From Candidatus Methanophagaceae archaeon (GTDB lineage Archaea > Halobacteriota > Syntropharchaeia > Alkanophagales > Methanospirareceae): DNA of 64,000 nt. The position numbers were made by a program, and so were the translations under genes. The DNA lies in contig PQXC01000005.1 of NCBI GenBank assembly GCA_003194435.1, positions 30,110 to 94,109 on the forward strand, read 5' to 3'. Shown one piece after another: positions 7,526 through 64,000 of this stretch. Under the pieces are notes generated by a model that was given only the letters and a program-made list of their open reading frames with translations, had not been told where the DNA came from and ran no database searches. Position 1 is the stretch's first letter, and each line of letters begins with the position of its first letter.

Positions 7526-8644
7526 ATGAGTAAATTTATGTTTAAGATTGGAGAGAAGATATTTCAAATAGAAGATCTTGGTGAGTCCGTGAACTCTCAG
7601 TTTTTGAGACTACATGAGAGCCATTTTTCTGGACGCGGTTTTGACCTCACTAAGTTTAGAAAAGAGGCATTAGATTTTTTCGATCATAGCGATGGCAATT
7701 ATCACGCTCACGATGAATTTTTTAATAATTTTACCATTATTTGGCGATCCTTTTTAAATCAAAGGCGTTTTAAAAACGCAGAGTATCTCTGGGACTTTGC
7801 TTTAAATATCGCCTATGATTGGGAAAACAAAAATCAAAACAAAAGAATCCATAAGGGAACTCCATACTATTTCTGGGGTGTGACTTGTATCTTGAATGGG
7901 GATTTGGAAAAAGGGTTTTTGCTAATGCACCAAGCATTGGAAGAGGACAAAAAGACTCATCAAACCAAAACTCCTAAAACTCCCGCATATTCTTTTGTTA
8001 CTCTGGATTATGAAAATCAGAACCAGTTCTTTAGACCAAAAGTGAGAGAAATTGCAAAATTCCTTGATGAAAATTATTTGAACAGTTACCGTTCTTCGAG
8101 GGGAGGGACATTAACTTTATCTGACTTTAAAACAAAATTCTTGGAAGAATCTGCTTTACAAGAAGTAGTTTTTTACTTTATTTTTGAATTATTCCGTCTT
8201 AAAAAGTTGCTTGAAGAGATAAATCAAAGATTAACACAGAATGTCTTCAGCTCTTTGCTACAAGCAAACACAATATTTACTCTTTGTCTCATCATAGATA
8301 ATGTTATTAAGCAAAAAAATCCCAATCAATGGAAATTTTCAGAACACCTGAAATTTTTATCTTCTAGATCCTCATTAAACCTTAATGATCAAAAGATTGG
8401 AGAATTAAATGGAGCATTCACAAACAATTTTTCCAATACGCTACAAAAATTATTAAGTTCACAATACCAATTTCAAGATGTAACTACACCGCAACCTATT
8501 GAGGAAGATTTAGCAATTACCTATGGTTTTAGAAATTTTGGAGCTCATAAAGTAGAAGATCAACCTGTTGTTTATCAAAACTTTGATGAAATATCGAGGA
8601 GGATTTTAAATGCTTTATTTTTCTCCGTCGAAAAATTGTACTAA
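7526..8644 (+). CDS. Cassette 3: all-alpha hypothetical protein with a C-terminal R-x4-H (HEPN-like) motif
   Basis: 372 aa, preceded by a GAGGAG RBS. No family is recognised by eye. 'AITYGFRNFGAHKVED' near the C-terminus matches the RNxxxH form of the HEPN RNase motif. Confidence 0.55.
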   Translation: MSKFMFKIGEKIFQIEDLGESVNSQFLRLHESHFSGRGFDLTKFRKEALDFFDHSDGNYHAHDEFFNNFTIIWRSFLNQRRFKNAEYLWDFALNIAYDWENKNQNKRIHKGTPYYFWGVTCILNGDLEKGFLLMHQALEEDKKTHQTKTPKTPAYSFVTLDYENQNQFFRPKVREIAKFLDENYLNSYRSSRGGTLTLSDFKTKFLEESALQEVVFYFIFELFRLKKLLEEINQRLTQNVFSSLLQANTIFTLCLIIDNVIKQKNPNQWKFSEHLKFLSSRSSLNLNDQKIGELNGAFTNNFSNTLQKLLSSQYQFQDVTTPQPIEEDLAITYGFRNFGAHKVEDQPVVYQNFDEISRRILNALFFSVEKLY

Positions 8645-18792: not shown

Positions 18793-21513
18793 TCAAAAAT
18801 CAACCCTTACTGTCTTTCCTTGTATCACCTCTTCTTCCGTTATCTTCACTTCTTTCTCCATGTCCCACACTATCGTTTTGTTCTCTACATGCCCTGCTTT
18901 TATCTTATACGGGGTTGCAAAGACATCGAAATTCGTGCCTCCTTCTATCGTGCCTTCCGTTGAATATGGCACGATAAACTCATAGGAGCCATTACTCTTA
19001 TTTACTATTTTTCTTTGTGAGTATGTGAAGCCCCTGCCCCTGTTTGTAGTTACATCAGTCGTTATTGCAACTACCGATGCGTTATGCACTCTACCTTCTA
19101 TTCTCGCTCCTTTTACGTATTCAAAAACCTTTACCGAGCTCAGGGGAGAGATGAACGAAGGAGTCCACTGAATCCTATCCTTATCAATCTTAATTTTATG
19201 ATGAAGTTTCTGTACAGTATTATTTGCGCTCGTATAATTCGCTCTGCGGTAGTAATGCCACCCCTCTACCTTCTTCGTCACGGTATTCTGAACAACGTAT
19301 GGGATAATATAAGAAGAAGATTCGTATACCAATCTGTAATGATGTAACGGATCTGTGTGAAAAGGTGTAATTGGGATAGAAGACTGTACTTCGAGATCCT
19401 CTCCCTCTCGTTCCACTTCTCTCCCATCGAAGATGTGTAGTCTTGTCACCATCGTATTGAAGTAGTTCTCATCCGGAACAAAGCCGATCCCTGTATCTCT
19501 ATCTCCTTCACGATCAGATTTTGCCCACATGATTATACCCCTGTATTTGTTACCAGAGAAACCCATCGCATCAGCCATCATGTAGTCCGTTATCACGTAT
19601 CTAACATCAAGAGCATCGGCAACTTTATTCGCTTCTGATTCATTTATCGCAGCGAAGAAAGTACATGCACCCGGGCTATTGTCCTGATACGGTCCCCCAA
19701 TCCCCTGCTGGAAATTATTAGCGACAGGAATCCGGTGAGCGATGTAAGTGATCCAGTTACCGTAGTCCCACCAGTTCATTACAGAATAGGCAGATTCAGG
19801 GTAGTTATAAGTCGCATCTTCGGGCGGTGTTTCATACAGCGCATAATAATCAACGCCGGTATCAGGTGTATTCGCCCGCATCCAGGTTAGAGACTCATAC
19901 CAGTCTTGGTCAGGACCCTGATTATACTTTGCTGCCATTGTCAGAGAATTCATTAGCGGGAGAGCGAAGAAAGAGAAGAAGATAACGAAGTAAATTGCGA
20001 TGGCATCGGCACGTAAAAACCTGCTCATACTATTCGCTCTATTCGCTCGCTCTTTATTTGATTTCAACCGCTTCGTCGTCTTCTTGCTTCTGCTTCTGCT
20101 CCTTTTACCCTTTATCACATTCTCATGGTATCCACTTTCCTCCTGCTTGAGGACTGCAAATTCTATAAACCGATAAGAGAGGTATCCACAGAGGATGGCA
20201 ACATTGATTGCGTAATATGCAGCAAAGCGTTTCTGCCCGAAACATGCGAGAAGAATTGTAAGACTCCACACGATGAGAAGAATCTCTTCTGCTTTCCATT
20301 CCTTCGTGATATTATAACAGATGAGTGCTATAGCAGCGAAAGCGAAGAAGAAAGCAGTGGTGAACCAGGCAATGATCTCACTCCATTGCAGTGGTTGAAC
20401 CTCGCCTATGGTCAAAAAAGTTTTTGACGGTGCAAACACGTATAGTAGTGGCATGGTTAGCATAGAGTATAAAGATGGCTTAAAGACACGTAAAACAAGA
20501 AGGGATATAGTAATGATGGCTATAATTGCAACAGGAAATGCAGCAGGGTGTATTCTTTTTCTGTTCAATAAATGAGAGAACATACGTAAAACGAGAAGGA
20601 GAGAGATGCCGAGGATAAGGATTATGACATGGAATGGAGAAAGGAATCCATAAGAGAATACAGGTATGGCTATCATAGCTGCTGGAATGACAAATACTGG
20701 CATGCTGATGATGAAAAGGGGATCACTATCCTCTCCCCTGAGATGATTGATAATATACTGAATCAATATGTAGACAAGCAGAATAAGAACAAAGAGGGGA
20801 GCACCCATCCATGTGAGGAGATAGCATCCGAAACAAATACCAGCTAAAGAGGAATAAGTGAGTGGTGCTCGTAAAGAACCCCAGTTTCTGGTTAAAATCG
20901 AATGCACAGTTATTTCTTTTTGTTTTTGTACGCTCTTCCCATTCCAATTCCTTAGAGCGAGGATAAAGAGAAGCATGACAAGTGTGCTGAGAAGGGTCTC
21001 CATGGCATGGTGATCGGTATATCCTAAGAGAGAACGTGATAGGAACTGACCGGGGAGGATAGCGATTAAAGCAGCAGAAAGAAGTCCGGTACCACGGTTA
21101 TATATCTCCTTTCCGATGAGATACACAGGAAAGATAGTGAGAACACCCAGAATTGCAGGATACCACGCACCTATCACTTCTATTCCATGCTGACCCAGTG
21201 AGGAAAGAGGGGCTCCAAGCCCTATTAGCCATATGAGAGAAGCAAGCGAGAGGTCGAAGAGAGGAGTACCAAAAGGGTTGTATGCGCCATGTGGATAAGC
21301 AGTGAAAGGATCAAAGTAGATACGAAAAGGGAAGTGATGCAGTGTGTTTTCAACAAGCCGCATGTTATACCAGGGATCAGCACCATCAAATCTCACGAAC
21401 GAGCCAGTAAAAACGGTATTATATGGGATAACAACGCGGATATAGAGCGACAGGAAGAATAAGAAAGTCAATACAAAGCCACAGAGCATGGAGGTCTTTT
21501 CAATCCTTCTCAT
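18793..21513 (-). CDS. aglB: Archaeal oligosaccharyltransferase (STT3 family)
   Basis: 906 aa with a polytopic N-terminal half. Has a 'WWDYGNWI' (WWDYG) motif and a large C-terminal soluble domain. Confidence 0.85.
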   Translation of the reverse strand: MRRIEKTSMLCGFVLTFLFFLSLYIRVVIPYNTVFTGSFVRFDGADPWYNMRLVENTLHHFPFRIYFDPFTAYPHGAYNPFGTPLFDLSLASLIWLIGLGAPLSSLGQHGIEVIGAWYPAILGVLTIFPVYLIGKEIYNRGTGLLSAALIAILPGQFLSRSLLGYTDHHAMETLLSTLVMLLFILALRNWNGKSVQKQKEITVHSILTRNWGSLRAPLTYSSLAGICFGCYLLTWMGAPLFVLILLVYILIQYIINHLRGEDSDPLFIISMPVFVIPAAMIAIPVFSYGFLSPFHVIILILGISLLLVLRMFSHLLNRKRIHPAAFPVAIIAIITISLLVLRVFKPSLYSMLTMPLLYVFAPSKTFLTIGEVQPLQWSEIIAWFTTAFFFAFAAIALICYNITKEWKAEEILLIVWSLTILLACFGQKRFAAYYAINVAILCGYLSYRFIEFAVLKQEESGYHENVIKGKRSRSRSKKTTKRLKSNKERANRANSMSRFLRADAIAIYFVIFFSFFALPLMNSLTMAAKYNQGPDQDWYESLTWMRANTPDTGVDYYALYETPPEDATYNYPESAYSVMNWWDYGNWITYIAHRIPVANNFQQGIGGPYQDNSPGACTFFAAINESEANKVADALDVRYVITDYMMADAMGFSGNKYRGIIMWAKSDREGDRDTGIGFVPDENYFNTMVTRLHIFDGREVEREGEDLEVQSSIPITPFHTDPLHHYRLVYESSSYIIPYVVQNTVTKKVEGWHYYRRANYTSANNTVQKLHHKIKIDKDRIQWTPSFISPLSSVKVFEYVKGARIEGRVHNASVVAITTDVTTNRGRGFTYSQRKIVNKSNGSYEFIVPYSTEGTIEGGTNFDVFATPYKIKAGHVENKTIVWDMEKEVKITEEEVIQGKTVRVDF

Positions 21514-37308: not shown

Positions 37309-39465
37309 TTATGTATTACCTTCGACCAATAAAATTTGTTGGAAATGAATTGACAGGCATCTGGTATCTATACTGTTTATAACATCACAAGGTCTCTGGC
37401 ATCCATCTGGTGTGTAGAATCTTATTACATTTTCGCCTTTCTTCAGTTCAATCGGTATTCTAATTTCCATAGGGCTTCTTGTGACTATCTGCCTGTGGAT
37501 TAACCCTTTGTTTAAGTAAACCTGTAAAGTTCTTGACTTATAGAAGCTTGTAGCCTTAAAGGATAGAATTGACGAGTTTTCTTGTGGTGTGTAAATAAAT
37601 AAGGTCGCATTATTTGACATCCAAGTATTATATATCTCACCATTTTTGTACTCAAAACGATAAAATCCTGTATGAGGTAATACTTGAATATTAGTTGCAA
37701 CATTGGATCTATACAATTTCATTCCATCTGATGAAACTGCCACAATTTCATAAGTAAGCGGTTTGTTGCTGACGATATACTTGATATCTGCACTAAAATT
37801 TGTGCTGAGAGAACCATAGATAAAATTCATTGGCATTCCCCAAAACTTGATGAGGCAATGATCTCCGGTGTACGGGTTAATAAAACACTCTTTGTCCATA
37901 AATATCAATTCTCCCTCTGCGGCATTATTTATTAACCATTTTCCGATTTCGTTTACATTTTCTCTGTCATTGCTAACCATTTGCAACCAATTATACGAAG
38001 GAATGCTAATTATTATAGAAAAAACAATTAGAATTATAATTAAAAATACGATTAAAAAACTTGTTTTCTTAGAAATATTTAAAAATAGTAATAGGATTGT
38101 AGCAATGATAGCAATTAAAACGGGTAGGAAAACAGCGATATCTTGAAAAACAGCCTTACCTGGGTCAATGAGATAATGTGATTGCATAACGATGGCTCTC
38201 ATATAATAAATGGACATAATATTAGGTACTTTATATTCAGCATAATAAGGATAGGTAGTAACAAAAAATAGGAATACAAAAGCACTTATAACTAACAACT
38301 TTTTAAAAAGTTTTTTGCGTTCATAGTTTAAGTCAATAATATTATTGCATAAACGTTTATCTAATGCAATCAACCCAATTATAAATATGGTGGGTAAAAC
38401 AGGATCAATATATCTCCCCCAAATAAAGTAATACATATGCTGTGGATGGGAAGGATTTCCAGCAAAAGGCAACATATGTGAAACAGTTATAAGTATGGAT
38501 AGAAGTCCATAAATGGAACTGTATAGCATGTACATTTTTATGGACGATTTTAATTTTCTCCAGTGTAATATTGCAAATACAAAAAATATAAAAAATATAA
38601 AATATGAAGCAAGTATCAAATAATCTATTTCATGAGCTATTAATTTTAAAAATAGAATAAAATTTTTGATATTATCAAAGGAAGATAACAAATTCTGAAG
38701 ATAGAAGTTGGTATTGTATTTATACATGCTCGAATTATATACATTTTTTGAGCCTAACCATAAGCCCAATAATATCGCAGGTGTAATTATCAAAAAAGCT
38801 TTCTGTCTTAGAAAGCCAATTCTGTCGCCGTTTCTCTCAGTTAAAATTTTGTAAAGTGCTACTCCAAAAAATGACAAAAAAGCAGCAATTCCGAAAGCTC
38901 TAATTAGAATTAAGTAGAACAATACGAAACCCGTAAGAATGTGCAGGAACTTATTGTCTTTCTCAAATGATTTTAAAATTAAAAAGCCTGAAAGTAAATA
39001 AAGAGGTATATATGTATTTTCACTCAGTATCATAAAACTATACAACGTATTTGCTGGTAGTAGTGCTATAAGGACAGCCCCTAAAATTGCTAAATCTCGC
39101 TTGATGTAGTCTTTTAGGATAAAATACGCTATAAAAAGAACTGAAGTAGAGAGCAAAGCGTTAATTAGCAATATACTCCTATACACTAATTCCATGTTAG
39201 GATAGAAAATGAAGGCAGGGGTGAGTATTAGTGGATATCCAGGTGGATATACTTGGTACTTGTCCGGCACTAATAAACACAGAGGATTTGACAAAATATC
39301 TTTTGCATAAGAGGCATATAACCATTCATCTCCAAAAACAAAAGGTGTGGGAAACCGCAAAGATAAAAATATTTTAATTAAAACAATTATTAGAAAGGCT
39401 GATAGCAAGAATAGATTATTCTTCTCGGTTATATAATTCCTAAATCTGAACAACGTAGACCACAT
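37309..39465 (-). CDS. GT-C fold membrane glycosyltransferase (ArnT/PMT-like) with a C-terminal extracytoplasmic domain
   Basis: 718 aa with more than 10 TM helices. An acidic 'FGDEWLY' motif sits in the first loop. The ~200-aa soluble C-terminus looks beta-rich. The sequence looks extremely AT-rich. Confidence 0.6.
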   Translation of the reverse strand: MWSTLFRFRNYITEKNNLFLLSAFLIIVLIKIFLSLRFPTPFVFGDEWLYASYAKDILSNPLCLLVPDKYQVYPPGYPLILTPAFIFYPNMELVYRSILLINALLSTSVLFIAYFILKDYIKRDLAILGAVLIALLPANTLYSFMILSENTYIPLYLLSGFLILKSFEKDNKFLHILTGFVLFYLILIRAFGIAAFLSFFGVALYKILTERNGDRIGFLRQKAFLIITPAILLGLWLGSKNVYNSSMYKYNTNFYLQNLLSSFDNIKNFILFLKLIAHEIDYLILASYFIFFIFFVFAILHWRKLKSSIKMYMLYSSIYGLLSILITVSHMLPFAGNPSHPQHMYYFIWGRYIDPVLPTIFIIGLIALDKRLCNNIIDLNYERKKLFKKLLVISAFVFLFFVTTYPYYAEYKVPNIMSIYYMRAIVMQSHYLIDPGKAVFQDIAVFLPVLIAIIATILLLFLNISKKTSFLIVFLIIILIVFSIIISIPSYNWLQMVSNDRENVNEIGKWLINNAAEGELIFMDKECFINPYTGDHCLIKFWGMPMNFIYGSLSTNFSADIKYIVSNKPLTYEIVAVSSDGMKLYRSNVATNIQVLPHTGFYRFEYKNGEIYNTWMSNNATLFIYTPQENSSILSFKATSFYKSRTLQVYLNKGLIHRQIVTRSPMEIRIPIELKKGENVIRFYTPDGCQRPCDVINSIDTRCLSIHFQQILLVEGNT

Positions 39466-53161: not shown

Positions 53162-56100
53162 CTACTTCTTCCTCCTCTGCACTACATACACGACTGCAAT
53201 CGCAATCAAGCTCGCAATTGTGAATATCGCTTCGTAACCCGGTATGGGCTTCGGTGTTGGTGTGGGTGTAGCCGGTGCAGGTGTCGGTACAGGTGTAGGT
53301 TTAAGTGTGGGTTTCGGTGTTGGTGATATAACCGGCGCTGTTGTGGGTGCTGGTGCTGCTGGCATTAACGCTTTACATGCGGCGCATTCCGGGTTGGGAT
53401 CGCACGGGTCCTTAGGATCGGTACCCTGAAGCATCTCCTCTATGTCGGTGATGCCATCTCCATCAGTGTCACGTGGTCCTCCGCCGCCACCGCCACCAGC
53501 AACTCTTGGTCGGGGTGTTGGTGTGGGATTCCCAAATGGAGCAATCTGACTGAAACTCGTTACGTTCGCATAGACATAATTCTCCTCCGTGTTGACATTG
53601 CTTCCCTGAATCACTTCCCACTCTGTTTCAGTCCGGTTCCAGTGGTATAATCTCAAGCTATTCTCTACAACGTTGGCAACATCAGCATCCTCGTAGCTCA
53701 CGTTCAAGAATATCCAAGAATTTTCGCTCACATCATATACATCCACGTATTTACCGATGTTCCTCTTCCCGACAGGATCTGAATATGGATCTGTTACAGA
53801 CGCTATTCTGATTCCATTATCGTAAGTGAACGAAATCGTAGTTGGATAGCTGCTTATCGTGAGATATTCGACAATGTTGTTGTGTGAATCTTCGTCTGAT
53901 TCGACAATGTTGCTATGTTTGTATAAATCGTCTGAGTAGAATATCATTCCAGGTAGACCATCCCATCGAGTGAGTCCACTTGATGCCGTGATGTTTGTCA
54001 GCATGTTGTTACTCGAGTTCTCCAGGTAAATGCCAGACCCGATGTTCGATGCGGTGATATTCATGAGTGTGTTATTGTTAGATTCTACCATGTAGATACC
54101 GACTAAGTTGTTCGATGAATTGATGTTCTTTATCGTACTGTTGTCGGTTCCATAGAGTTTTACGCCAACATCTGAATTCGATAAGTTGAGATTCTTCGCT
54201 GTGATATTATCGCAGTTCACGAGTATAACCTGTCCAGCATTTGTAATTGTCTGATCTGCTGCATCTTCGAGATAAGCAAGAGGCTTGCCGTTTACTGTAT
54301 TACCCTGCACGGTGTTTTCATAGGACTCATAAACAATAAGTCCATCGTTTACAAAAGTGTTGTTTGCAAGCTTAATGTGGCTCGAATCTGCAAAGATGAC
54401 GCCGACTTCATTGTCCGAGACTTCATTGTCTGTGAGCGTGTTGTTGCTCGATTCTCCTAACTGGATACCGTCCCGGTTGTTCGATACGTCGTTGTTTGTA
54501 AGTGAGTTGTTGCTCGAATCATGCAAGCCGATACCGAGTTCATTGTTCGATGCGCTGTTGTTCATGAGCGTATTATTGTTCGATTCGGCTAAGTAGATGC
54601 CACCCCAGTTATTCGATACGATGTTGTTCATGAGCGCGTTATTGCTTGAATTCATCAAGTAGATACCGAGTTCATTGTTCGATGCGCTGTTGTTCATGAG
54701 TGTATTATTGCTCGAATCCTGCAAGTCGATACCGATCTCGTTATTCGACATAGTGATGTTCATGAGTGTATTATTGTTCGATTCTTCTAAGTAGATGCCA
54801 CCCTGGTTATTCGATACGATGTTGTTCATGAGCGTGTTATTGCTCGAATCCTTCAAGACGATACCGAGTCCATTGTTCGATGCGTTGTTGTTAGAGATAT
54901 TACAAAACTCCACATCATCAAGCCATATTCCGGCATGCTCTGTTGCACCTGTAATCATGAACCCGCTTATGTTTACGTAGTCAACGGTCACATTGAATAC
55001 ATGCTCGCTTGCGTTTGCTGCCTGAACGATCGTATCCGAAGGATTCCCAGAAGTAGACCTGATTGTCAGTTGTTTGTAGACATACACATTCTCGGTGTAT
55101 ATGCCTGCGTCCATCGTAATTGTATGTCCATCTATTGTATTAACGGCATCTATTGCCGCCTGAATCGTTGAGAAGTCCTCGCCAGTATCTATATTGTGGA
55201 CTGGTGGTGTTGGCATCGTTGCGGTTAGCGTTGTCGTACCATCCGCGTATCCGGTCCTGTTTGCCGTAACGTTTAGCGTGCCCTCCATCGTCGCATTGAC
55301 CCACAGAGTTACCTGTCCTGTCGCATTCGTCAGTCCGCTCTCGTTTACTCCACAGCCGCTCACATTGACCGTTGCATTATCAACCGCTGCTCCTGCTGAT
55401 GTGACATTGAACACTACACTCGTGTTCTCGCCCACGTAAACGACCGCTGGGGTCGCTGTCACCGTCAATGCTGCTCTCTCAAGCGTAATATTGAAATTAT
55501 ACAGCCCGCCGTTATCAATCTCTTCTTGAGTTATCACATGTTCAATGTTTTTCGTTTGGTTCCCTGAAGGGCTCTTCGCATCGAACCGCAACGTATCTCC
55601 TGCCATCACATCAACAGTGCTGCTAAGCACGAGCTGATAGTAGTTAGTGCTTGCATTTCTCTCCGCAGACCAATTCTCGCCTGTGTTCACGTTCGTTATG
55701 TTCACAATCGGATAGTTGCACGCGGTGTTATTCTCGTAAAATACGTATCCGTAAACCATGAACGATGTTGGTGGCAGTACGCTATTCGGCTGACACGGTG
55801 TTCCACCGACTCTCTTGCTCTCTTCCCAGCCACCGGACGCATTCAACTCGAGTGTTTTGTTATTCGTCTTTGCCATACCTTGTAATGCATACTGTGTATA
55901 GTTTACGGTATCACTTACATTTCCTTGACTATCGTTCAGAAATATCGTCTCGCCATCGTTAAGAAGCGAAATCGCAACTTTTACCACCGGGCAAACAACT
56001 CTTGGATAGATTTTCTTGAACTTGGTATCGTTTCTTGCAATAATTAAGTAATCACCGGGTTGTATTTCTGCTTTGGGTATCGTTTTGTTATCTATTGTCC

Positions 56101-56329
56101 AACCTGTAATGTTCACAGATTGCGACCCATTATTGTATAGCTCAATCCATTCATTGTATTGCCCTCCCCACGTGCTACTCGGTGCATACATTATCTCAGT
56201 GATGATTACACTATCGCCTGCTCCTGTTGAACTCGTAGCTACTCCTGCTGACATAACTCCCGATATCACACTCGTCAAAATCGCAAGCATAACCAGGCAA
56301 CTCGACACTTTCTTTATCATTTTAGTCAT
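53162..56329 (-). CDS. Large cell-surface protein: signal peptide, lamin-tail domain, Ig-like domains, parallel beta-helix (PbH1/NosD-like) repeats, Ca-binding/Cys module, Pro/Thr linker and a PGF-CTERM-like anchor
   Basis: 1055 aa. The lamin-tail domain reads 'VIITEIMYAPS...NEWIELYNNG...ITGWTI'. There are ~10 near-identical 22-23-aa repeats '(S)SNNTLMNN.(A/V)SNN..GI.L'. The C-terminus reads '...DTDGDGITDIEE...PGYEAIFTIASLIAIAVVYVVQRRKK'. The protein carries very many N-x-S/T sequons. Confidence 0.85.
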   Translation of the reverse strand: MTKMIKKVSSCLVMLAILTSVISGVMSAGVATSSTGAGDSVIITEIMYAPSSTWGGQYNEWIELYNNGSQSVNITGWTIDNKTIPKAEIQPGDYLIIARNDTKFKKIYPRVVCPVVKVAISLLNDGETIFLNDSQGNVSDTVNYTQYALQGMAKTNNKTLELNASGGWEESKRVGGTPCQPNSVLPPTSFMVYGYVFYENNTACNYPIVNITNVNTGENWSAERNASTNYYQLVLSSTVDVMAGDTLRFDAKSPSGNQTKNIEHVITQEEIDNGGLYNFNITLERAALTVTATPAVVYVGENTSVVFNVTSAGAAVDNATVNVSGCGVNESGLTNATGQVTLWVNATMEGTLNVTANRTGYADGTTTLTATMPTPPVHNIDTGEDFSTIQAAIDAVNTIDGHTITMDAGIYTENVYVYKQLTIRSTSGNPSDTIVQAANASEHVFNVTVDYVNISGFMITGATEHAGIWLDDVEFCNISNNNASNNGLGIVLKDSSNNTLMNNIVSNNQGGIYLEESNNNTLMNITMSNNEIGIDLQDSSNNTLMNNSASNNELGIYLMNSSNNALMNNIVSNNWGGIYLAESNNNTLMNNSASNNELGIGLHDSSNNSLTNNDVSNNRDGIQLGESSNNTLTDNEVSDNEVGVIFADSSHIKLANNTFVNDGLIVYESYENTVQGNTVNGKPLAYLEDAADQTITNAGQVILVNCDNITAKNLNLSNSDVGVKLYGTDNSTIKNINSSNNLVGIYMVESNNNTLMNITASNIGSGIYLENSSNNMLTNITASSGLTRWDGLPGMIFYSDDLYKHSNIVESDEDSHNNIVEYLTISSYPTTISFTYDNGIRIASVTDPYSDPVGKRNIGKYVDVYDVSENSWIFLNVSYEDADVANVVENSLRLYHWNRTETEWEVIQGSNVNTEENYVYANVTSFSQIAPFGNPTPTPRPRVAGGGGGGGPRDTDGDGITDIEEMLQGTDPKDPCDPNPECAACKALMPAAPAPTTAPVISPTPKPTLKPTPVPTPAPATPTPTPKPIPGYEAIFTIASLIAIAVVYVVQRRKK
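53228..53525. repeat. Dispersed ~300-bp near-identical repeat (copy 1), encoding the shared C-terminal module
   Basis: It aligns base for base with 56755-57056, apart from scattered substitutions and a 3-nt indel. Confidence 0.85.
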
Positions 56330-56597: not shown

Positions 56598-56647
56598 TAA
56601 AAAAGAAAAAAATAAAAAAGAAAATAAAAATCTCCTGAACGGTTCAG
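56598..56647 (-). terminator. Hairpin plus oligo-T terminator after the cohesin-protein gene
   Basis: On the minus strand, CTGAAC-cg-TTCAG (56635-56647) is followed by long T runs (TTTTTATTTTCTTTTTTATTTTTTTCTTTTTT). Confidence 0.5.
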
Positions 56648-56691: not shown

Positions 56692-59600
56692 TTACTTCCG
56701 CCTTTTCCTCTGCACTAAGTACGCCACTGCTAACAAGCCCGCAATCATGAATACCGCTTCGTAACCAGGTGTGGGCTTCGGTGTTGGTGTGGGTGTAGCT
56801 GGTGCAGGTGTCGGTACAGGTGTAGGTTTAACAGTGGGTTTCGGTGTTGGTGATACGACCGGCGCTGTTGTGGGTGCTGGTGTTGTTGGCATTAACGCTT
56901 TACATGCGGCGCATTCCGGATTCGGGTCGCACGGGTCATTAGGATCGGTACCCTGAAGCATCTCCTCTATATCCGTGATGCCATCTCCATCACTGTCACG
57001 TGGTGCTCCTCCGCCGCCACCACCGCCAGCGACTCTTGGTCGGGGTGTTGGTGTTGGTGGTATTTTCACTTTGGTTATTGTCGAAACCGTATCTGTAACA
57101 TTTTTATCTGCCTCTGAGGTAGCGGTAACATTCACAATGTACGTTCCTGCTGCTTCATCTCTCACAGTAAGCAATACAACTCGTTTGGCTCCTGCAGAAA
57201 GATTTTGTATTGTAGATGTGTTCAGTATTGCTATGTCCGCATTGCTTACGTTATCAACCGTTAGTGTATAGTTATCGGTATTGGTCCCCAGATTCTTCAC
57301 GGTGAGTGTGTAAGTTGCATCCTCGTTCGGCTTGACCGTTTTTTCTGCTGGCTCAGCAGTCATGTAAACATAATATGGTGTGGTCAATGTCTTTGCAGTG
57401 TCATTCACCCATGTCTGGTTTATATTTCCATGTGTATCCACGGTGCGAGTGGAAATCGTATATGATGTGTTTGGTAAAAGCTCGGTAGCGTTGTAATACG
57501 GCACAGACGTGTTCGTCTTCCATGTACCGTTCAGATATACCATTACATAACCGAAATCAGAATCCAGTGGGTTCGTCCAGGTCCAGTTAATCCATGTAAC
57601 ACCTGAGGTCTTATTTAAGTTACTAACGCTGGCGGGCGGTGTTGTATCTTCTACAACAGCACTTTTCAGCACCAGTTCTTCTCTAAGAACACCATTAATA
57701 TAACTCTGATACTTAGGAATCTTCGCTATTCCATGGTCGCTTATCCAGTACTTCGCTGTAATGGTCAAATTCGAACCCGATACCGAAATGCTGGCATTGT
57801 TCTCCACCACCAAGCAACGAAGTTCACCGTAAGGCGTTGTCAGATTCTCTTCGCCCGTTACTTTCCCTTCTATCTCCGCAGTTATATCATCAACTTGAGT
57901 CGTTGCACCTGCAACTGTAACTGTACCACTAACATTTATAGTTGATGCCCATGTTTTCCCTACCCATAAGGGGTAGTTAAGCATCGTGTACTCTGGATTG
58001 AATGTCAGATTCGTTATTCCTGTTTCGTCCTTCATTACCAGACGTTTCATTGTAAAGTTCTTCGCTGTCTCGTTTATGCCTACATACATCTCCGTGCCAC
58101 CCACTAACTTGCTTATATTCAGCACATAGTAGAGTTTGGAATCAATCGTAGCAGTTTCAGCGAAGAATACTATCGTCGCGTTTTTACCCACATTGGTTGA
58201 CATCGAGTCGTTAGTAACGTTAGCTATGTATGTGGTCCCATAAGGTATCACCGAGAATGGAATCTCAAATCTAACTATAGGCTTGAAGTTCGCCGTGATG
58301 GTATAGTTGTCATTCATCGTTATGCTTGTCTCTGAAGCATTCACATCCTCTATCGTATCTACATCGCCTGTCCAGTTAACGAAGACATAGCCTGTATCTG
58401 CTACTGCTTTCAGTGCAACTACCGTATCGGCATCGTAGGTATGTGTCCCCTCGCTTGGCTCTGTTACGTTACCACCAGCAGTACTTGTAATTGTCAGTGT
58501 GTATGTTACAGGTGTTTTTATCCTAACCGTCAGGCTCTTCGTTGACTCTACATTTGCCGTCTCGTTCTTGTCCACCGAATAGTAGTATATCGTGGTGCTA
58601 CCTTCATCTGATACTGTCACGTTAAACGAATCCCCGAACGTATCATTCTTGTAAATCGTGAGATTACCGGTACCTATCTCTGGTATGGTCACCTCTGTAC
58701 CATTCAAATTAACGGTTACCTGCGCAGACGCCGATAGATTAGTATAATTAACGCCAGAACCGTGAAGCATACCACCGCCAGTATCAGTACGAAGAAATTT
58801 TAGCGTTACTGGCGCACTTGACCAGTTCAGTATGTGCGATGACGGTATCGGGCTCGGCTCACCGGTAAGTTCCGGTGCTGTTACGCTGGTTGTCGGCGGT
58901 GTACTATCCACACCCACCACTTGCGGCTCTTCTAATACCACATCTCTTGTCCTCTCGTTGTTTCCTGTGTTGTTATCTACTGGGATTGTTGCTTTCACTT
59001 TTATCGTGTATGTGCCCGATACAAGACCCGATGTGTTCCATGGATCACTGTAAGTATTAGATTCGCCCATATTTACCGCATACGTATGTGTTGCAATAGT
59101 TTCATTCCAGCCCGTAGCGTTTGCAACACTCACCGTAACATTAACCGATTCGTTGAAGCTGCCCGCGTTCGTAAGTTTATATCTGATTTTGTAAGTTTCG
59201 CCAATCGTTAAGTTCTCATCAGCTCCCACTACATCTGTCCCATCACGTGTTACCTTTATCCCGTTTACTGCACCTGAGTAATCGATTGAGACGTTTATGT
59301 CATGGATTTGTACTACTTCACCTATCTTAAACGTGCCGTTTACCGGTGTTGCAGCTATTTCTCCATTACTGGAACTGACTAACTTACCGATCTCTACATT
59401 AAGAGGACTCATGTCACCATTGTTCCCAACTGCTTTTAATGTGAGCGTTGCCAGTACAACTGTACCATTTAGAGATGGTTTCTGGAAGATGTTAACGGTA
59501 TAGAAGCGCACTTTATTGGGTGCGGTGCGTTCCCAAAAAAACGTCCCAACTCCAGGCCCTGCACTTATGTTTGTAACATTCACTACATCAGGATTGAACG

Positions 59601-59823
59601 TTACGCTTATCCCAAAGTTAGCGAGATCTTCGATATCATAAGCTGTAACTGACGTATTGGTCGTATCTCCTGTATTCTGTACAGTGACATTCGCAATTTT
59701 TATTGTTGGTTGACTTGCTAGGTTAGAAGTAAGTGCCATAGATAGAGAGGTAACCACTGCTATCGCTATAATCGCCGTTGCTAACACTGGTAACCCAGTT
59801 TTTGCTTTTTTATCTTTTTTCAT
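56692..59823 (-). CDS. Large cell-surface protein with an N-terminal cohesin domain, CARDB/Ig-like/FN3-like domains and the same C-terminal anchor module as 53162..56329
   Basis: 1043 aa. The cohesin-like segment reads 'IKIANVTV...DLANFGISVTFNPDVVNVTNISAGPG...LNGTVVLATLTLKAVGNNGDMSPLNVE...ATPVNGTFKIG'. A CARDB-like segment ('YKLTNAGSFNESVNVTV') and an InlB-B-repeat-like segment ('YTLTITSTAGGNVTEP...GYVFVNWTGD') follow. An FN3-like domain comes next, then '...DSDGDGITDIEE...PGYEAVFMIAGLLAVAYLVQRKRRK'. Confidence 0.8.
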   Translation of the reverse strand: MKKDKKAKTGLPVLATAIIAIAVVTSLSMALTSNLASQPTIKIANVTVQNTGDTTNTSVTAYDIEDLANFGISVTFNPDVVNVTNISAGPGVGTFFWERTAPNKVRFYTVNIFQKPSLNGTVVLATLTLKAVGNNGDMSPLNVEIGKLVSSSNGEIAATPVNGTFKIGEVVQIHDINVSIDYSGAVNGIKVTRDGTDVVGADENLTIGETYKIRYKLTNAGSFNESVNVTVSVANATGWNETIATHTYAVNMGESNTYSDPWNTSGLVSGTYTIKVKATIPVDNNTGNNERTRDVVLEEPQVVGVDSTPPTTSVTAPELTGEPSPIPSSHILNWSSAPVTLKFLRTDTGGGMLHGSGVNYTNLSASAQVTVNLNGTEVTIPEIGTGNLTIYKNDTFGDSFNVTVSDEGSTTIYYYSVDKNETANVESTKSLTVRIKTPVTYTLTITSTAGGNVTEPSEGTHTYDADTVVALKAVADTGYVFVNWTGDVDTIEDVNASETSITMNDNYTITANFKPIVRFEIPFSVIPYGTTYIANVTNDSMSTNVGKNATIVFFAETATIDSKLYYVLNISKLVGGTEMYVGINETAKNFTMKRLVMKDETGITNLTFNPEYTMLNYPLWVGKTWASTINVSGTVTVAGATTQVDDITAEIEGKVTGEENLTTPYGELRCLVVENNASISVSGSNLTITAKYWISDHGIAKIPKYQSYINGVLREELVLKSAVVEDTTPPASVSNLNKTSGVTWINWTWTNPLDSDFGYVMVYLNGTWKTNTSVPYYNATELLPNTSYTISTRTVDTHGNINQTWVNDTAKTLTTPYYVYMTAEPAEKTVKPNEDATYTLTVKNLGTNTDNYTLTVDNVSNADIAILNTSTIQNLSAGAKRVVLLTVRDEAAGTYIVNVTATSEADKNVTDTVSTITKVKIPPTPTPRPRVAGGGGGGGAPRDSDGDGITDIEEMLQGTDPNDPCDPNPECAACKALMPTTPAPTTAPVVSPTPKPTVKPTPVPTPAPATPTPTPKPTPGYEAVFMIAGLLAVAYLVQRKRRK
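56755..57056. repeat. Dispersed ~300-bp near-identical repeat (copy 2)
   Basis: See 53228-53525. Confidence 0.85.
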
Positions 59824-59850
59824 TTTTTCCCTTTCACCTCCTAATCGTTA

Positions 59851-60519
59851 TTATGGGTATATCGGATCCCCAAAGTAAATATGTTTTGCCAACGCAACAA
59901 CATCGCTGAAAGCGACTTCTCCATCTCCGTTCACATCAGGTTCGTCACTCACGGGATCCCCAAAGTAAATATGTTTTGCCAACGCAACAACATCGCTGAA
60001 AGCGACTTCTCCATCTCCATTCATGTCTCCCCTTGCGATCTTTACTTTTACCACGTTTGCATCACTCGCGGCTTTATTACCTCTTATATCATTTGCGTAA
60101 ACTACGTAGCTGTAATTGCCGTTTGGTAAAGGAACGTACTGGAATAAAGAGTGATTAAAGGCAGAAACTCTATAAGAAAATTTATTGTCACCGATCATGT
60201 ACATTGTTCTGTTGTTCAGCTTTTCCAAGCGTTGAAATGCCTCATTCCAGACGTCCAAGAAGTATCCTGTTGCATCCCATACCGAAGTATTGACCATGTC
60301 TACAAAACCACTTCTATCATCGGAGGAATCTATGGGATCTACAACTTCTGCTGTGATGTTTATGTAACCCGTGGTGTTTACCGATAATGGCGCTGGCTCT
60401 ATAATCTGAATTGTTGGTGGCGTGGTATCTTCTGCTTGAACTGAGGCTATCACTCCTACGGCGCAACAAAATATAACCCACCCTACTACTGCTATACTCC
60501 CCAGTCCTTTATCAGTCAT
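59851..60519 (-). CDS. Secreted Ig-like domain protein with a C-terminal dockerin
   Basis: The start is taken at the ATG at 60519 ('MTDKGLGS...'), preceded by GGAGGTG. Two identical dockerin segments read 'D(M/V)NGDGEVAFSDVVALAKHIYFGDP'. Confidence 0.8.
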   Translation of the reverse strand: MTDKGLGSIAVVGWVIFCCAVGVIASVQAEDTTPPTIQIIEPAPLSVNTTGYINITAEVVDPIDSSDDRSGFVDMVNTSVWDATGYFLDVWNEAFQRLEKLNNRTMYMIGDNKFSYRVSAFNHSLFQYVPLPNGNYSYVVYANDIRGNKAASDANVVKVKIARGDMNGDGEVAFSDVVALAKHIYFGDPVSDEPDVNGDGEVAFSDVVALAKHIYFGDPIYP

Positions 60520-60537
60520 TTTTTCTATTCTCACCTC

Positions 60538-62403
60538 CTACGGGTATATTGGCTCATTGAAATATATATGCTTTGCTAATAATATTACATCATCAAAAGT
60601 AACTTTGCCATCGCTATTTACATCAGGATCATCGCTTACATGTTCATTGAAATATATATGTTTTGCTAATGATATTACATCATCAAAAGTAACTTCACCG
60701 TTACCATCCATGTCGCCTGTTCTCTGCTTGCTACCCTCCACCACCAGTATCGCATTACTCGCCTCCATGTAATCGCAACTGCTCTGGAACGCAGCCACAT
60801 TCGTCGTATTTAGATACGGTGTGACATCACACTCATTAATGCCTATCTGTGAGTCGCCTGCAAACTTCCACACATCACTCCACTTATGCCCGTTGAATAT
60901 CAACTCGCCCTCATCCGAAGCGCCCGGCGCCACTGTTATCAACCGTGCACTCCTGTTACCCGCATCTTCAATCGCCCCCGTGAACGGCGCATAAGCAGTC
61001 GCTTCTTCGGGCGTTGTGCACTTATCAGAGCCACCGTAGAGCAAATCAAACCCTTCATTCACAAATATCTTGCACCACTCTGGACCTTCCCCACTCTCGC
61101 TCTCGTATATCACCGCGAGCAACATACCCCGTATGGATGGATTACCAGCAACCGGATTCAGATTCTCAAGAACTGCGGTGTTACCGCTATTATTGAATTC
61201 GCCGGTTACATTGTATGCAAGCATTCCATACGGATAGTCGGAGCCGTCGTACCCCTTGCGATCTGTATAAAACGCATCCCGCTCCACCGTGATATTGTTA
61301 AATCTCAGACTGACATTGTCAGGCATCCCCTGCACCTTATCCCATGTGTAATACACATACAGTCTCGCTTCTTTTACTATCGCATCTTTACCATCAGGAA
61401 TGGATAAATCCGCTGTGCTCCAGTTGACTGTATACTTGTACCATGGTTGTGTGGAACCACTCAAATAACGGCTATCTCCTGTTGAATATAGAAAACCGCC
61501 CCTAACTTTATATTCCCGCGCGGTGGTTATATTAATATCACCATTCCCGGTCTCAGCGCCACCGCCGGTATATCGCTTACCTTTATACCCGTTATTTACC
61601 ACCTGCATGGTTACTTCCTTTTCATTATTATCGTTATCTATCTCTGCAACTTCATCTCTACAATCCGCCTTCACTCTTATTGTAACATTGACCCCCGCTA
61701 CTCTTGACGTAAGGTCTAAAACTGCTACCTGAGTACTGCTGTTAGCAGCCAGCCCCGGAACCCGGATTTCCTCTGTTTTATCTCCCACCTGAAAACTGAC
61801 ATTGAATGCACCTGCATCCTCTGTACCGATATTCTTTACTGTTGCATTTATGTGGTTGCTCTCATTCGCAAATAAGAACCCGCAATTAGGATTTGGCTCT
61901 ATATCTGCAACTACCAGCTCCCGTCCTTTACAATGGTCCGCTATGACCACTTGCGTCTCGCCCCTTACCGCACCATAATAAACACGAATTACCGCAGTGC
62001 CCTTTTCCGTTCCCGCTTTCAGCGTTGCATGTGCATAGCCATCTTTGTCTGTTTTATCCCACACAGCAGTCCTGGTATACCGCCCTCCTGTAGGTGCATC
62101 AATCAGCTCAGCATCGAATGGACCCTCCATCACAAATGTAAGAGGGAAGCCCTCACTGGGCACGCCACTATCATTCACTGCGCGCGCTGTTATTAGCGCC
62201 TCCGCTTCACCATTGGCGAGAATGCAGGTTCGATTCGCGGTGACCATGATCATAGTAGGCTTCGGTGGTTGAGGTGTACCAGGGTCGCCAGCACTAATTA
62301 CCACCCCAAACATCACCGATACAAGAACAATAACTGCCGTTATAGCTACAAATATTCCCTTCCCCCTCTTATGCTCATGCACTACCCCTATCTTCATCTT
62401 CAT
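60538..62403 (-). CDS. Secreted Big-like + CARDB + DUF3344-like protein with a C-terminal dockerin
   Basis: 621 aa. The CARDB segment reads 'VADIEPNP...ATVKNIGTEDAGAFNVSF'. A DUF3344-like core reads 'NNGYKGKRYTGG...ARLYVYYTWDK'. The dockerin reads 'GDMDGNGEVTFDDVISLAKHIYFNE...DVNSDGKVTFDDVILLAKHIYFNEP'. Confidence 0.8.
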   Translation of the reverse strand: MKMKIGVVHEHKRGKGIFVAITAVIVLVSVMFGVVISAGDPGTPQPPKPTMIMVTANRTCILANGEAEALITARAVNDSGVPSEGFPLTFVMEGPFDAELIDAPTGGRYTRTAVWDKTDKDGYAHATLKAGTEKGTAVIRVYYGAVRGETQVVIADHCKGRELVVADIEPNPNCGFLFANESNHINATVKNIGTEDAGAFNVSFQVGDKTEEIRVPGLAANSSTQVAVLDLTSRVAGVNVTIRVKADCRDEVAEIDNDNNEKEVTMQVVNNGYKGKRYTGGGAETGNGDINITTAREYKVRGGFLYSTGDSRYLSGSTQPWYKYTVNWSTADLSIPDGKDAIVKEARLYVYYTWDKVQGMPDNVSLRFNNITVERDAFYTDRKGYDGSDYPYGMLAYNVTGEFNNSGNTAVLENLNPVAGNPSIRGMLLAVIYESESGEGPEWCKIFVNEGFDLLYGGSDKCTTPEEATAYAPFTGAIEDAGNRSARLITVAPGASDEGELIFNGHKWSDVWKFAGDSQIGINECDVTPYLNTTNVAAFQSSCDYMEASNAILVVEGSKQRTGDMDGNGEVTFDDVISLAKHIYFNEHVSDDPDVNSDGKVTFDDVILLAKHIYFNEPIYP

Positions 62404-62677
62404 CTCTCACCTTTACCCTGCTTCTTCTCTATGTCCCTCTATATATAAAAGCATATGCTTTTTACATGTGCCTTATATCTGCATATCACTACTGCTTATA
62501 AACGTAAGCAGTTTCTCAATATTTAAGCTTTTCTATTATGTTATGTTCTTATTGTATCATCACAGGCTAAAATACAGATACGGGAAAAGAGTATAATCCA
62601 AACCTGTTAAGGGAAAAGAATAAAAGAAAAAAGAAGAATAAAGGAGTTTTTATCGCTTAATTTTTTGTTTCGTTCGT

Positions 62678-64000
62678 TCACTCTGCACTCTGCTCCCCAC
62701 CGTCTGTCTCAGCCTCCGCTTCCACTGCCGCTCCTTCCCCCTGTGTCATAATGGGCATCGGCATCGCCGTCTCTGTCAATGCCTCTATCTGCGCATATAC
62801 CTGCTTGTCACGGTAATGCTTCATTGTAGCGGCACCTGAGGGGCATATTGCATTGCACGCGCCACAGCCCTTGCAGATTGCTTCGTTCACCGTCATTACG
62901 TGCCTCACTTCATCGAATACGAGTGCACCAAACGGGCATGTCTGCTCACAGCACCGACATCCTATGCAAATCTCCTCGTTTATCTCCGATATCGCCGGCT
63001 CTATCTTCGCCTTACCCTCTATCAAATATACGAGCGAGCCAGAAGCTGCCGCCTTACCCTGCGCTATACTGTCTGTTATATCTTTTGGACTCACACAGCA
63101 ACCCGCAATGAATACTCCATCTACTGCCGTATCCACGGGTCTGAGCTTCGGATGCGCTTCCAGCAAGAACCTGTCCGCAGACTCCGAGAGCTTGAGCATA
63201 TCCACTACACTCTCCACTCCCTTATTCGGTACTAAGCCCACACCGAGCACCACGAGGTCCGCTTCCTTTTCGTATGGCTCTCCTATCATGGTGTTCTCGC
63301 CTCTCACCACTACTCTGTCACTGCCCGGTTTCCTGTATATCTCTGCCGGCAGTCCCCTCAGATAGAATACCCCTTCCTCCTTCACCTGGTCGTAAAACTC
63401 CTCAAAGCCCTTGCCAAACGCTCTCACATCCTGATAACATACGGTCACGTTCGCATCGGGTATTTGTTCCTTCACCAAATGCGCCTGCTTCGCTAAATAC
63501 ATACAGCATATTCGCGAACAGTACTCATTCCCAACCTGCTTATTGCGCGAGCCCACGCAGCTTATGAATACAACATCCTTCGGCTTCTTGCCGTTCAGCT
63601 CTATCTTACCGCCCGTCGGTCCGCTCGGAGATGACAACCGCTCAAACTCCAGGCTCGTTATCACATTTGGATACACGCCATACTTGTATTCCGGCGCTAC
63701 TTGCGGGTCCACTATGTCATAGCCCGTTGCCACTATTATCGTACCCACAGTATATTCCTCTACTCTCTCCTCTTCACTGAAATCTATTGCACCCGGCGAG
63801 CATACACTCATACACGGTGGCACTTCCTTGCCCTCTTTTATCGTCTCGAGTGTGGCATTACCGCATTTCCCTTCCTTCAACAATGCACAGTGCTCAGCAT
63901 CCACGATATACGCAGGTGGCACCGCGAAGGGGAACGGCATATAAATGGCACTTCTAACACCCAGCCCCTCATCATATTCGTTCGGTATATCCTTGACCGG
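62678..64000 (-). CDS. hdrA: Heterodisulfide reductase subunit A (HdrA)-like flavoprotein; N-terminus outside the window
   Basis: The frame stays open upstream of the Met at 63940 ('...VKDIPNEYDEGLGVRSAIYMPFPFAVP'). Shows 'CVGSRN...YCSRICCMY', 'FIAGCC' and two C-terminal 4Cys ferredoxin motifs ('CIGCRCCEQTCP', 'CKGCGACNAICP'). Confidence 0.85.
   Translation of the reverse strand, partial: PVKDIPNEYDEGLGVRSAIYMPFPFAVPPAYIVDAEHCALLKEGKCGNATLETIKEGKEVPPCMSVCSPGAIDFSEEERVEEYTVGTIIVATGYDIVDPQVAPEYKYGVYPNVITSLEFERLSSPSGPTGGKIELNGKKPKDVVFISCVGSRNKQVGNEYCSRICCMYLAKQAHLVKEQIPDANVTVCYQDVRAFGKGFEEFYDQVKEEGVFYLRGLPAEIYRKPGSDRVVVRGENTMIGEPYEKEADLVVLGVGLVPNKGVESVVDMLKLSESADRFLLEAHPKLRPVDTAVDGVFIAGCCVSPKDITDSIAQGKAAASGSLVYLIEGKAKIEPAISEINEEICIGCRCCEQTCPFGALVFDEVRHVMTVNEAICKGCGACNAICPSGAATMKHYRDKQVYAQIEALTETAMPMPIMTQGEGAAVEAEAETDGGEQSAE

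Follow-up and report, generated by a model that had tools for sequence, protein, structure and literature searches.

We analysed a 64,000-nucleotide (nt) stretch of contig PQXC01000005.1 from a Candidatus Methanophagaceae archaeon (hereafter 'the window') and found that three minus-strand genes, at positions 62403-56692 in the open reading frame (ORF) listing, encode two proteins that end in dockerins (P1 and P2, the cargoes) and an anchored protein that begins with a cohesin (P3, the receptor protein). These three proteins probably constitute a minimal surface-display set, in which the anchored cohesin captures the two dockerin-tagged proteins. Comparison with related contigs shows that tag and receptor, judged by where DNA similarity breaks off and resumes, have been swapped together as one cassette between close relatives. 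In our estimation there is also an even chance that tag and receptor form a 'lock-and-key' cassette that varies between strains, comprises four or more tag/receptor pairs, each orthogonal to the others, and is represented in the window by one allele; its turnover would then result from diversifying selection on surface identity (viruses, partner bacteria, kin recognition). Anaerobic methanotrophic archaea of group 1 (ANME-1), the lineage to which the window's closest named homologues point, consume a large part of the methane that rises from marine sediments, are uncultured, and live closely associated with partner bacteria and with viruses. The cohesin and dockerin passages of PMC9012536 state explicitly that cognate pairs in ANME are still to be determined, and the locus offers a compact natural experiment on this missing step; the same cargo body and stalk occur with four tag/receptor sets, for which a diagonal 4x4 binding matrix would be predicted.

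Cassette replacement among related populations

Related contigs share the locus order HdrA, cargo 1, cargo 2, anchored protein and P4-like gene (P4 being the next surface-protein gene after P3), and fall into four variants, A-D. In variant A (the window, L069-L073 and L076) both cargoes bear a type-A dockerin and the receptor carries cohesin X; the L076 contig ends inside cargo 2, with its cargo-2 tag and anchor falling outside. In variant B (L074 and L075) both cargoes bear a type-B dockerin (Pfam, 24.0 vs. 22.9 bits) and the receptor carries cohesin Y, which is 33% identical to X despite 95% identity of the genomic flanks. In variants C and D (L077, L078 and L081-L083) the replacements are C-terminal tags (Z) and an N-terminal receptor module (W), non-homologous to dockerin and cohesin, respectively. 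A cohesin hidden Markov model (HMM) matched the anchored proteins of variants A and B (E = 1e-34 to 1e-52) and none in variants C or D.

The boundaries of these replacements are sharp. All five C and D contigs are 92-97% identical to the window at the nt level up to position 60737 (60732 in L083), and regain identity at 58924 (58929 in L083), the stretch between these breakpoints being unalignable; in L074 and L075 similarity breaks at 60738 and resumes at 58274, with no DNA similarity in between. The left breakpoint lies 8 residues ahead of the P1 dockerin, and the right one at approximately P3 residue 301, directly past the cohesin and a CARDB-like domain. Close P1 homologues agree with this, their Big/CARDB/DUF3344 bodies being 83-98% identical and homology ending at aa 556; for cargo 1 of L077, L078 and L074, identity to the P1 body is 98%, 95% and 89%, respectively. 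The segment between 58921 and 60737 is a replaceable cassette, with co-occurring close populations holding other tag/receptor pairs at the same breakpoints while the flanking cargo body and stalk stay 92-98% identical. Variants A and B co-occur in two samples (L069 with L075, and L070 with L074). Since L076, which represents a more distant genome (90% identical flanks), still has cassette A, the closer B, C and D genomes must have gained their replacements by recombination. Strain-specific surface identity, avoidance of cross-talk, and recognition of viruses or partners are candidate reasons for such variation, and the fact that only the outermost tip of a surface protein is swapped at the strain level suggests that surface identity is under selection in methane-oxidising consortia.

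Tag class and receptor class also agreed more broadly. Among all non-duplicate loci, the upstream tagged gene and the receptor gene were dockerin and cohesin at 5 loci, Z and W at 20, and mixed at 0 (dockerin followed by W, 0), although these loci are partly related, so the counts are not a clean probability. No tagged gene lay upstream of another six receptor genes, and four receptor genes were at a contig edge. The W loci were retrieved using W alone; upstream sequence was usable for 22 W genes, and in 20 of these a Z-tagged gene precedes W, at W identities down to 39%. Among the dockerin loci, type A accompanies a clade X cohesin in the window, L001 and L101, and type B a clade Y cohesin in L074 and twice in L002, and the two tags within a locus always belong to one type (identity 99% in L074, 83% in L002, and 69% between P1 and P2 in the window). 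The best evidence so far that neighbouring dockerins and cohesin may be cognate partners comes from this co-variation, and dockerin B with cohesin Y is proposed to be orthogonal to A with X. An earlier note on the window had already proposed the logic of an anchored cohesin with dockerin-bearing cargo encoded next to it, and that proposal is strengthened by the joint replacement of dockerins and cohesin in relatives. A rule covering all DUF3344-dockerin genes was tried and rejected, as two of three further loci (L098 and L100) had no directly downstream cohesin gene, their cohesin genes lying upstream within the cluster; the third (L101) repeated type A with X.

The Z and W modules are arranged much as dockerins and cohesins are. 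Z is always C-terminal, one or two copies of it running up to the final residue; it is found on many DUF3344 proteins as well as on proteins with a cohesin at the start. W, a beta-rich module, comes after the signal peptide in proteins whose C-terminal part comprises a TSP3 repeat, a Pro/Thr linker and PGF-CTERM and which can be as small as ~265 aa (L084, L086). Double-W proteins (L091, L092), W...Z-Z adaptors (L089-L091) and cohesin...Z hybrids (L091, L095) also occur, and by analogy these architectures follow the grammar of cohesin-dockerin systems. Z/W is a candidate second docking system. Two other identities were rejected: W as a divergent cohesin (hhalign probability 0.4%, no PDB sequence match, and no Pfam or NCBIfam family), and Z as a dockerin-like fold (AlphaFold2 (AF2) pLDDT 94.2, yet the best Foldseek PDB match had E = 0.035 and TM<0.25). 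If Z and W do bind, they would represent a second, unrelated docking system in archaeal surface biology, and would supply synthetic assemblies with new orthogonal protein connectors that probably tolerate heat. In a limited search, the cohesin and dockerin passages of PMC9012536, PMC5244752 and PMC10553843 contained no mention of Z/W modules, this operon layout, a PGF-anchored single cohesin or strain cassette swaps. The module types themselves are already known in ANME-1, and the locus is not the first archaeal example; what appears to be new here is the population genetics, i.e. exact cassette replacement between strains.

The P3 cohesin, the dockerins and the proposed display set

The earlier note had read the first domain of P3 as cohesin-like and tied this to support from profile searches. 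Pfam gave no Cohesin match for full-length P3, a search of residues 38-172 alone returned nothing even at E<=10, and a single-sequence PDB search of the domain found no match. Its closest indexed homologue, P0001 (58% identical), matched Pfam Cohesin (PF00963) at 28.4 bits vs. a cut-off of 24.1. A word-indexed homologue search found this one protein and a profile repeat 11, so that an exhaustive search was needed to define the family; at E<=1e-3 it retrieved 364 representative proteins, in many of which the domain is present 2-14 times. Of 40 aligned family domains, 32 matched Pfam Cohesin and no other family (best, 6.8e-14), and the PF00963 membership of the window domain itself, as a sequence assignment, rests on transitive homology. 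A family profile (the window domain plus 39 homologues) matched 28 distinct PDB sequences, all of them cohesins (3l8q, 8.9e-12; 2xdh, 8.1e-10; 1g1k, 1.3e-8). The AF2 model of P3 residues 35-175 was all-beta (pLDDT 93.8, pTM 0.87), and its top 50 Foldseek PDB matches were cohesins only, at E down to 7.9e-11, with type I cohesins leading the list (TM 0.77-0.85, root-mean-square deviation 2-3 Å) at 13-19% sequence identity to solved cohesins. Family profile and structure model together show that the N-terminal module of P3 is a cohesin.

The dockerins of P1 and P2 each consist of two segments of ~22 residues, in which a calcium loop (D-x-[DN]-x-[DN]-G-x-V-x-F-x-D, with Asp/Asn at loop positions 1, 3, 5 and 12) is followed by a helix (V[IV]xLAKHIYF), and both end at the last residue of their protein. 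The calcium-loop segments are DMDGNGEVTFDD and DVNSDGKVTFDD in P1 and DMNGDGEVAFSD and DVNGDGEVAFSD in P2, and the two halves share 60/75 nt in P1 and 71/75 nt in P2. The P2 dockerin scored above the Dockerin_1 (PF00404) cut-off (29.3 vs. 22.9 bits) and matched solved dockerins (2y3n_B, 4.7e-6; CelS 2mte/1daq; 2vn5_B); the P1 dockerin likewise matched 2y3n_B. The composition given for P1 in the earlier note (Big/CARDB/DUF3344-like with a two-segment dockerin) is thus upheld, DUF3344 and CARDB by significant matches, the dockerin by homology and the Big_1-like domain at a sub-threshold level. For P2 its dockerin stands, and the matches behind an Ig-like body were all sub-threshold.

Among P1 homologues, the CARDB-DUF3344 body carries a dockerin, a Z tag or a direct PGF-CTERM tail, in keeping with a reading of the tags as surface-attachment devices. 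DUF3344 is described as having a P_proprotein-like structural resemblance and labelled 'likely cell surface' (PMC9210967, PMC9674854). Given these labels and the absence of any enzyme domain, our working guess, from domain content, is that P1 is an adhesin-like Big/CARDB/DUF3344 protein that serves in adhesion or recognition.

The proposed display set would then operate as follows. All three proteins would be secreted, and the PGF-CTERM-like tail would fix P3 to the membrane after archaeosortase-type processing, as is expected from its family. A long stalk of Ig-like domains would keep the N-terminal cohesin distant from the cell, where it may bind P1 and P2 through their dockerins, which are calcium-binding and internally duplicated. 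Sharing a single site, P1 and P2 would compete or alternate, unless other X-type cohesins exist elsewhere, and the near-identical dockerin halves would permit a dual binding mode.

Alternative explanations and known systems

Several observations weigh against such a display set. X-type cohesin and type-A dockerin occur within one protein among relatives (P0001, P0005, P0007 and P0011), so that either X and A are not partners or chains are formed, and in cellulosomes, binding between the cohesin and the dockerin of one and the same adaptor is unusual. Tag, P2 and receptor are contiguous, so one recombination event moves all of them, whether they interact or not; this objection is weakened by repeated independent concordance (A/X three times, B/Y three times, and Z/W in diverse genomes). 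The DUF3344-dockerin genes of L098 and L100, as noted above, stand without a cohesin gene directly downstream. The P1 dockerin scores 20.6 bits, just under the Dockerin_1 cut-off, the PGF-CTERM (PF18204) score of P3 equals its cut-off exactly (18.8 bits), and no archaeosortase was found among the scanned ORFs of the 64-kb window. Finally, where PMC5244752 treats these modules it counts about 80 cohesin and 110-150 dockerin InterPro domain matches in each ANME-1 genome, so with more than 100 dockerins per genome the partners could lie elsewhere. From the same census, further cohesins elsewhere in this genome, one of the options raised in the earlier note, are almost certain, and the rarity implied by the note's remark that such modules are known in a few archaea needs correction for this lineage.

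Adjacency could instead reflect co-regulation only, with the P1 and P2 dockerins binding other cohesins and the P3 cohesin receiving other dockerin proteins. The large repertoires that PMC5244752 and PMC9012536 give for ANME-1 in their accounts of these modules are in keeping with this, as are the dockerin genes with no following cohesin gene and the X/type-A fusions. We nevertheless consider it unlikely, because tag class and receptor class always change jointly at the locus, both cargo tags of a locus are always of one type, and Z precedes W in 20 of 22 W genes with zero mixed pairs. A somewhat less likely case, which would be compatible with the surface-display set, is that of multi-tier chains, in which P0001-like adaptors encoded elsewhere dock on P3 and on each other, with P1 and P2 as caps, so that an extended matrix, instead of 1:1 display, would form at the surface. 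Relatives (L001, L101) do have adaptors that combine an X cohesin with a type-A dockerin, as well as a protein in which a type-A dockerin accompanies several cohesins, some family proteins contain 2-14 cohesin copies, and scaffoldin-like ANME proteins with up to five cohesins, alongside CARDB adhesion domains, are reported in the relevant part of PMC9012536; against this, the 64-kb window contains no adaptor and only three modules in all.

Docking could also take place between cells, onto modules of another organism such as a sulfate-reducing partner, which would make the cassette a partner-recognition device. Syntrophic sulfate-reducing bacteria encode and express cohesin and dockerin proteins, for which a role in sensing the partnership has been proposed (PMC10553843, in its passages on these proteins), and strain-level diversity of the cassette would suit a recognition function. 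Tag and receptor, however, are encoded jointly and co-vary within one genome, as self-assembly predicts and between-cell recognition does not require, and we regard docking between cells as very improbable. That there is no specific docking at all, the cohesin-like domain being one more beta-sandwich of the stalk and the dockerins calcium-binding stabilisers, would accord with the failure of the window cohesin to match Pfam on its own; we give this almost no credence in view of the full-length type I cohesin fold, the canonical two-segment dockerins at the extreme C-termini, and the strict co-variation of tag and receptor.

The surface-display set, which we continue to prefer, shares its parts with the clostridial type I cohesin-dockerin system (C. 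thermocellum CipA; OlpA/OlpC). The fold of the P3 cohesin is alike (TM 0.8 to 6kge, 4fl4, 3ul4 and 1aoh), the C-terminal, two-segment, EF-hand-like dockerins of P1 and P2 match those of CelS and Cel48 and have the internal symmetry of dual-binding-mode dockerins, and the single-cohesin, cell-anchored P3 parallels the anchoring scaffoldins OlpA/OlpC. In contrast to that system, the locus has no glycoside hydrolase, carbohydrate-binding module or multi-cohesin scaffoldin, the P3 anchor is an archaeal PGF-CTERM-like tail rather than an SLH or sortase anchor, the cargo consists of a CARDB/DUF3344 protein and a small beta-rich protein, and the host is a methane-oxidising archaeon. The earlier note had recognised no carbohydrate-active enzyme domain by eye, and indeed no GH, CE, PL or CBM family was found among the Pfam and NCBIfam matches of P1-P4; its comparison with a cellulosome-type scaffold fails on this point and on the single cohesin, and the locus is not a cellulosome.

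A closer parallel is the cohesin of Archaeoglobus fulgidus (2xdh), likewise archaeal and non-cellulolytic (profile match 8e-10, fold TM 0.80), whereas the P3 cohesin is borne by an anchored stalk of 1043 aa, has the genes of two dockerin cargoes immediately upstream, and belongs to a strain-polymorphic pair. Experimental demonstrations of archaeal cohesin-dockerin binding are credited to refs 167 and 168 in the part of PMC9012536 that treats these modules. The ANME repertoires of Timmers et al. 2017 (PMC5244752) and Chadwick et al. 2022 (PMC9012536) concern the same lineage and module families, and those accounts, in their cohesin and dockerin passages, are domain censuses. As in PGF-CTERM proteins, the end of P3 has a Thr/Pro-rich linker, PG[FY], a hydrophobic helix and a basic tail, together with a very high sequon density and an AglB gene in the window; it differs in having PGY and a score only at threshold. 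Substrates of this PGF-CTERM/archaeosortase A pathway, reportedly described by Haft in 2012 and Abdul Halim in 2013, are said to include the S-layer glycoprotein of Haloferax volcanii. CdiA-CT/CdiI systems are polymorphic cassettes of a C-terminal module and its partner, and share with this locus a sharp breakpoint at a domain boundary and the joint replacement of the C-terminal module and the adjacent partner; the analogy concerns genetic architecture only, as no toxin or immunity function is indicated here and the modules would be surface-assembly tags and receptors.

Gene cluster, anchor and neighbourhood

P1, P2 and P3 form one operon (Table 1), and the three co-oriented genes with spacings of 3-27 nt given in the earlier note were recovered: the P1-P2 gap is 18 nt (3 nt with the GTG start of P2), and the P2-P3 gap 27 nt. 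The P2 start is most likely ATG 60519, rather than GTG, because a Shine-Dalgarno signal, GGAGGTGA, lies 11 nt upstream of this ATG and the GTG falls inside that signal; ATG 60519 is also the choice of the gene caller on five independent metagenome contigs that encode an identical P2 protein. Five independent contigs, 98.7-99.9% identical to the window, cover 61027-58746, and the gene arrangement is therefore not an assembly artefact. The P2 dockerin and the P3 cohesin share one reading frame, with two stop codons between them. Upstream of P1, a 274-nt spacer comprises the T-rich end of an HdrA-like gene and then the TATA-like elements. Downstream of P3, the hairpin and oligo-T that the earlier note had placed there are present on reading the sequence, and the segment 56599-56647 is likely the end of the operon; a bacterial-type terminator scan called no terminator for P3, and oligo-T is the usual termination signal in archaea.

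Table 1. Positions of the three genes, their signals and domains, the cassette, and the neighbouring gene P4 in the window
Feature	Position	Strand	Details
P1, cargo 1	60538-62403	minus	621 aa
P2, cargo 2	59851-60519	minus	222 aa from ATG 60519 (227 aa if GTG start, ORF to 60534)
P3, anchored receptor protein	56692-59823	minus	1043 aa
Replaceable tag-receptor cassette	58921-60737	minus	P1 dockerin, whole P2, P3 signal peptide, cohesin and CARDB-like domain
AT-rich TATA-like elements upstream of P1	62518-62530 and 62441-62450	minus	read from sequence; putative promoter
P1 Shine-Dalgarno-like AGGTGAG	62406-62412	minus	read from sequence
P1 hydrophobic signal or anchor segment	N-terminus	minus	
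P1 Big_1-like domain	61972-62244	minus	Pfam, below cut-off (Big_1/Invasin_D3)
P1 CARDB	61615-61875	minus	Pfam 3.8e-17
P1 DUF3344	60736-61575	minus	Pfam 1.8e-63
P1 type-A dockerin, aa 564-621	60541-60714	minus	segments DMDGNGEVTFDDVISLAKHIYF and DVNSDGKVTFDDVILLAKHIYF
P2 dockerin	59854-60027	minus	preceded by signal peptide and small beta-rich body
P3 Shine-Dalgarno AGGAGGTGA	59835-59843	minus	read from sequence
P3 cohesin module X, aa 36-171	59311-59718	minus	local cohesin HMM E=1.6e-52
P3 Flg_new_2	58276-58503	minus	Pfam
P3 C-terminal anchoring unit	56704-56997	minus	
P3 TSP3_bac calcium-binding repeat (PF18884)	56932-56997	minus	29.8 bits vs. 25
P3 PGY, transmembrane helix and RKRRK tail	56704-56772	minus	motif PGYEAVFMIAGLLAVAYLVQRKRRK
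Short hairpin downstream of P3	56635-56647	minus	read from sequence
T runs after the P3 hairpin	56599-56630	minus	read from sequence
P4, neighbouring surface protein	53162-56329	minus	1055 aa; LTD, NosD-type beta-helix (TIGR03804, 7 repeats)

From its N-terminus, P3 consists of a signal peptide, the cohesin, a CARDB-like domain, a domain starting at aa 302, Flg_new_2, and DUF3108-like, fn3-like and CARDB-like domains (the DUF3108-like and CARDB-like Pfam matches being sub-threshold), followed by TSP3, a Cys-containing motif, a Pro/Thr linker and the PGF-CTERM-like anchor. The anchor named in the earlier note holds insofar as PF18204 is matched at threshold; the motif is PGY, not PGF, with homologous anchors in relatives reading PGFE, and the tail scored 15.0 against TIGR04126, under the cut-off of 24.5. 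The P3 stalk is shuffled in units of single domains. At 57027-57660 there is a second variable segment (P0003, L074, L077 and L081-L083 compared), in which Big_2 repeats and Flg_new_2 in L077, a large insertion in L074 and a P4-type domain in P0003 take the place of the window's fn3-like and CARDB-like domains; the Flg_new_2 stretch (58274-58520) is missing from L081-L083.

P4 has its own TATA-like region and Shine-Dalgarno signal and is separately transcribed; a P4-like gene is kept downstream of the locus in L074 and L077. It scored 30.9 bits for TSP3_bac (cut-off 25), and its tail passed Loki-CTERM NF033507 (21.5 vs. 19.9). The TSP3/linker/PGY anchor is arranged as in P3, and the 3' ends of the two genes are 89% identical over 358 nt (57057-56706 vs. 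53527-53173), which makes the shared 3' end a possible substrate for recombination between them. P4 contained no cohesin, dockerin, Z or W module; a 'YGYVFY...' module in it was considered as a W receptor and dropped, as the W HMM had no match anywhere in the window.

N-x-S/T sequons number 49 per 1000 aa in P3 and 48 in P4, vs. 4 per 1000 in 38 other window ORFs, and P3, by this measure, is probably heavily N-glycosylated. Within 17179-42557, an AglB oligosaccharyltransferase gene (18793-21513) is followed by a long glycan-synthesis island with dTDP-rhamnose genes (RmlA/B/D/C-like), glycosyltransferases of families GT2 and GT4, methyltransferases and a pair of ABC-2 exporter genes; AglB and this island fit the 12-fold sequon excess in P3 and P4.

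As for lineage, the archaeal markers in the window are AglB, an A-type ATPase, AFOR and HdrA. No tRNA and no Rfam RNA were found in the window, so that rRNA-based taxonomy was not possible and the lineage rests on named homologues. The closest to P1, P0163 (84% identical over 98% of the length), comes from a metagenome-assembled genome (MAG) labelled 'Methanophagales archaeon', and other P1 matches are labelled ANME-1, Methanophagaceae or Methanospirareceae; an identical P2 protein occurs in JGI metagenomes, one of which is labelled GBSed.

The HdrA-like neighbourhood is a stable landmark for the variable locus. In the window an HdrA-like flavoprotein gene with 4Fe-4S domains lies upstream of the operon (62678-63940, cut by the window end), and tandem HdrA-like paralogues, preceded by an aspartyl-tRNA synthetase gene, lie upstream of the locus in L002, L074, L076 and L078. 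In L002, a related MAG (HdrA 81% aa identity), two successive pairs of a dockerin gene and an anchored-cohesin gene follow HdrA, with dockerins (DAMYLYKWKA type) and cohesins unlike those of the window. The cargo-2 gene of L101 (2234-3214) encodes an X-type cohesin split by an inserted Ig-like domain, with a type-A dockerin at the end, and its predicted product is a nested-domain adaptor.

In the region of the glycan-synthesis island, GC content is 30-39% across ~28-42 kb, against 43-50% in the rest of the window, and a 718-aa minus-strand ORF (37309-39465) in the lowest-GC zone (~30%) had no Pfam match at 1e-5. An IS110-family transposase gene (DEDD_Tnp_IS110 and Transposase_20; 9354-10661, minus strand) lies in a lower-GC stretch, with a NucS/YhcG-like nuclease ORF (5411-6505) and a further ORF (7526-8644) as its neighbours.

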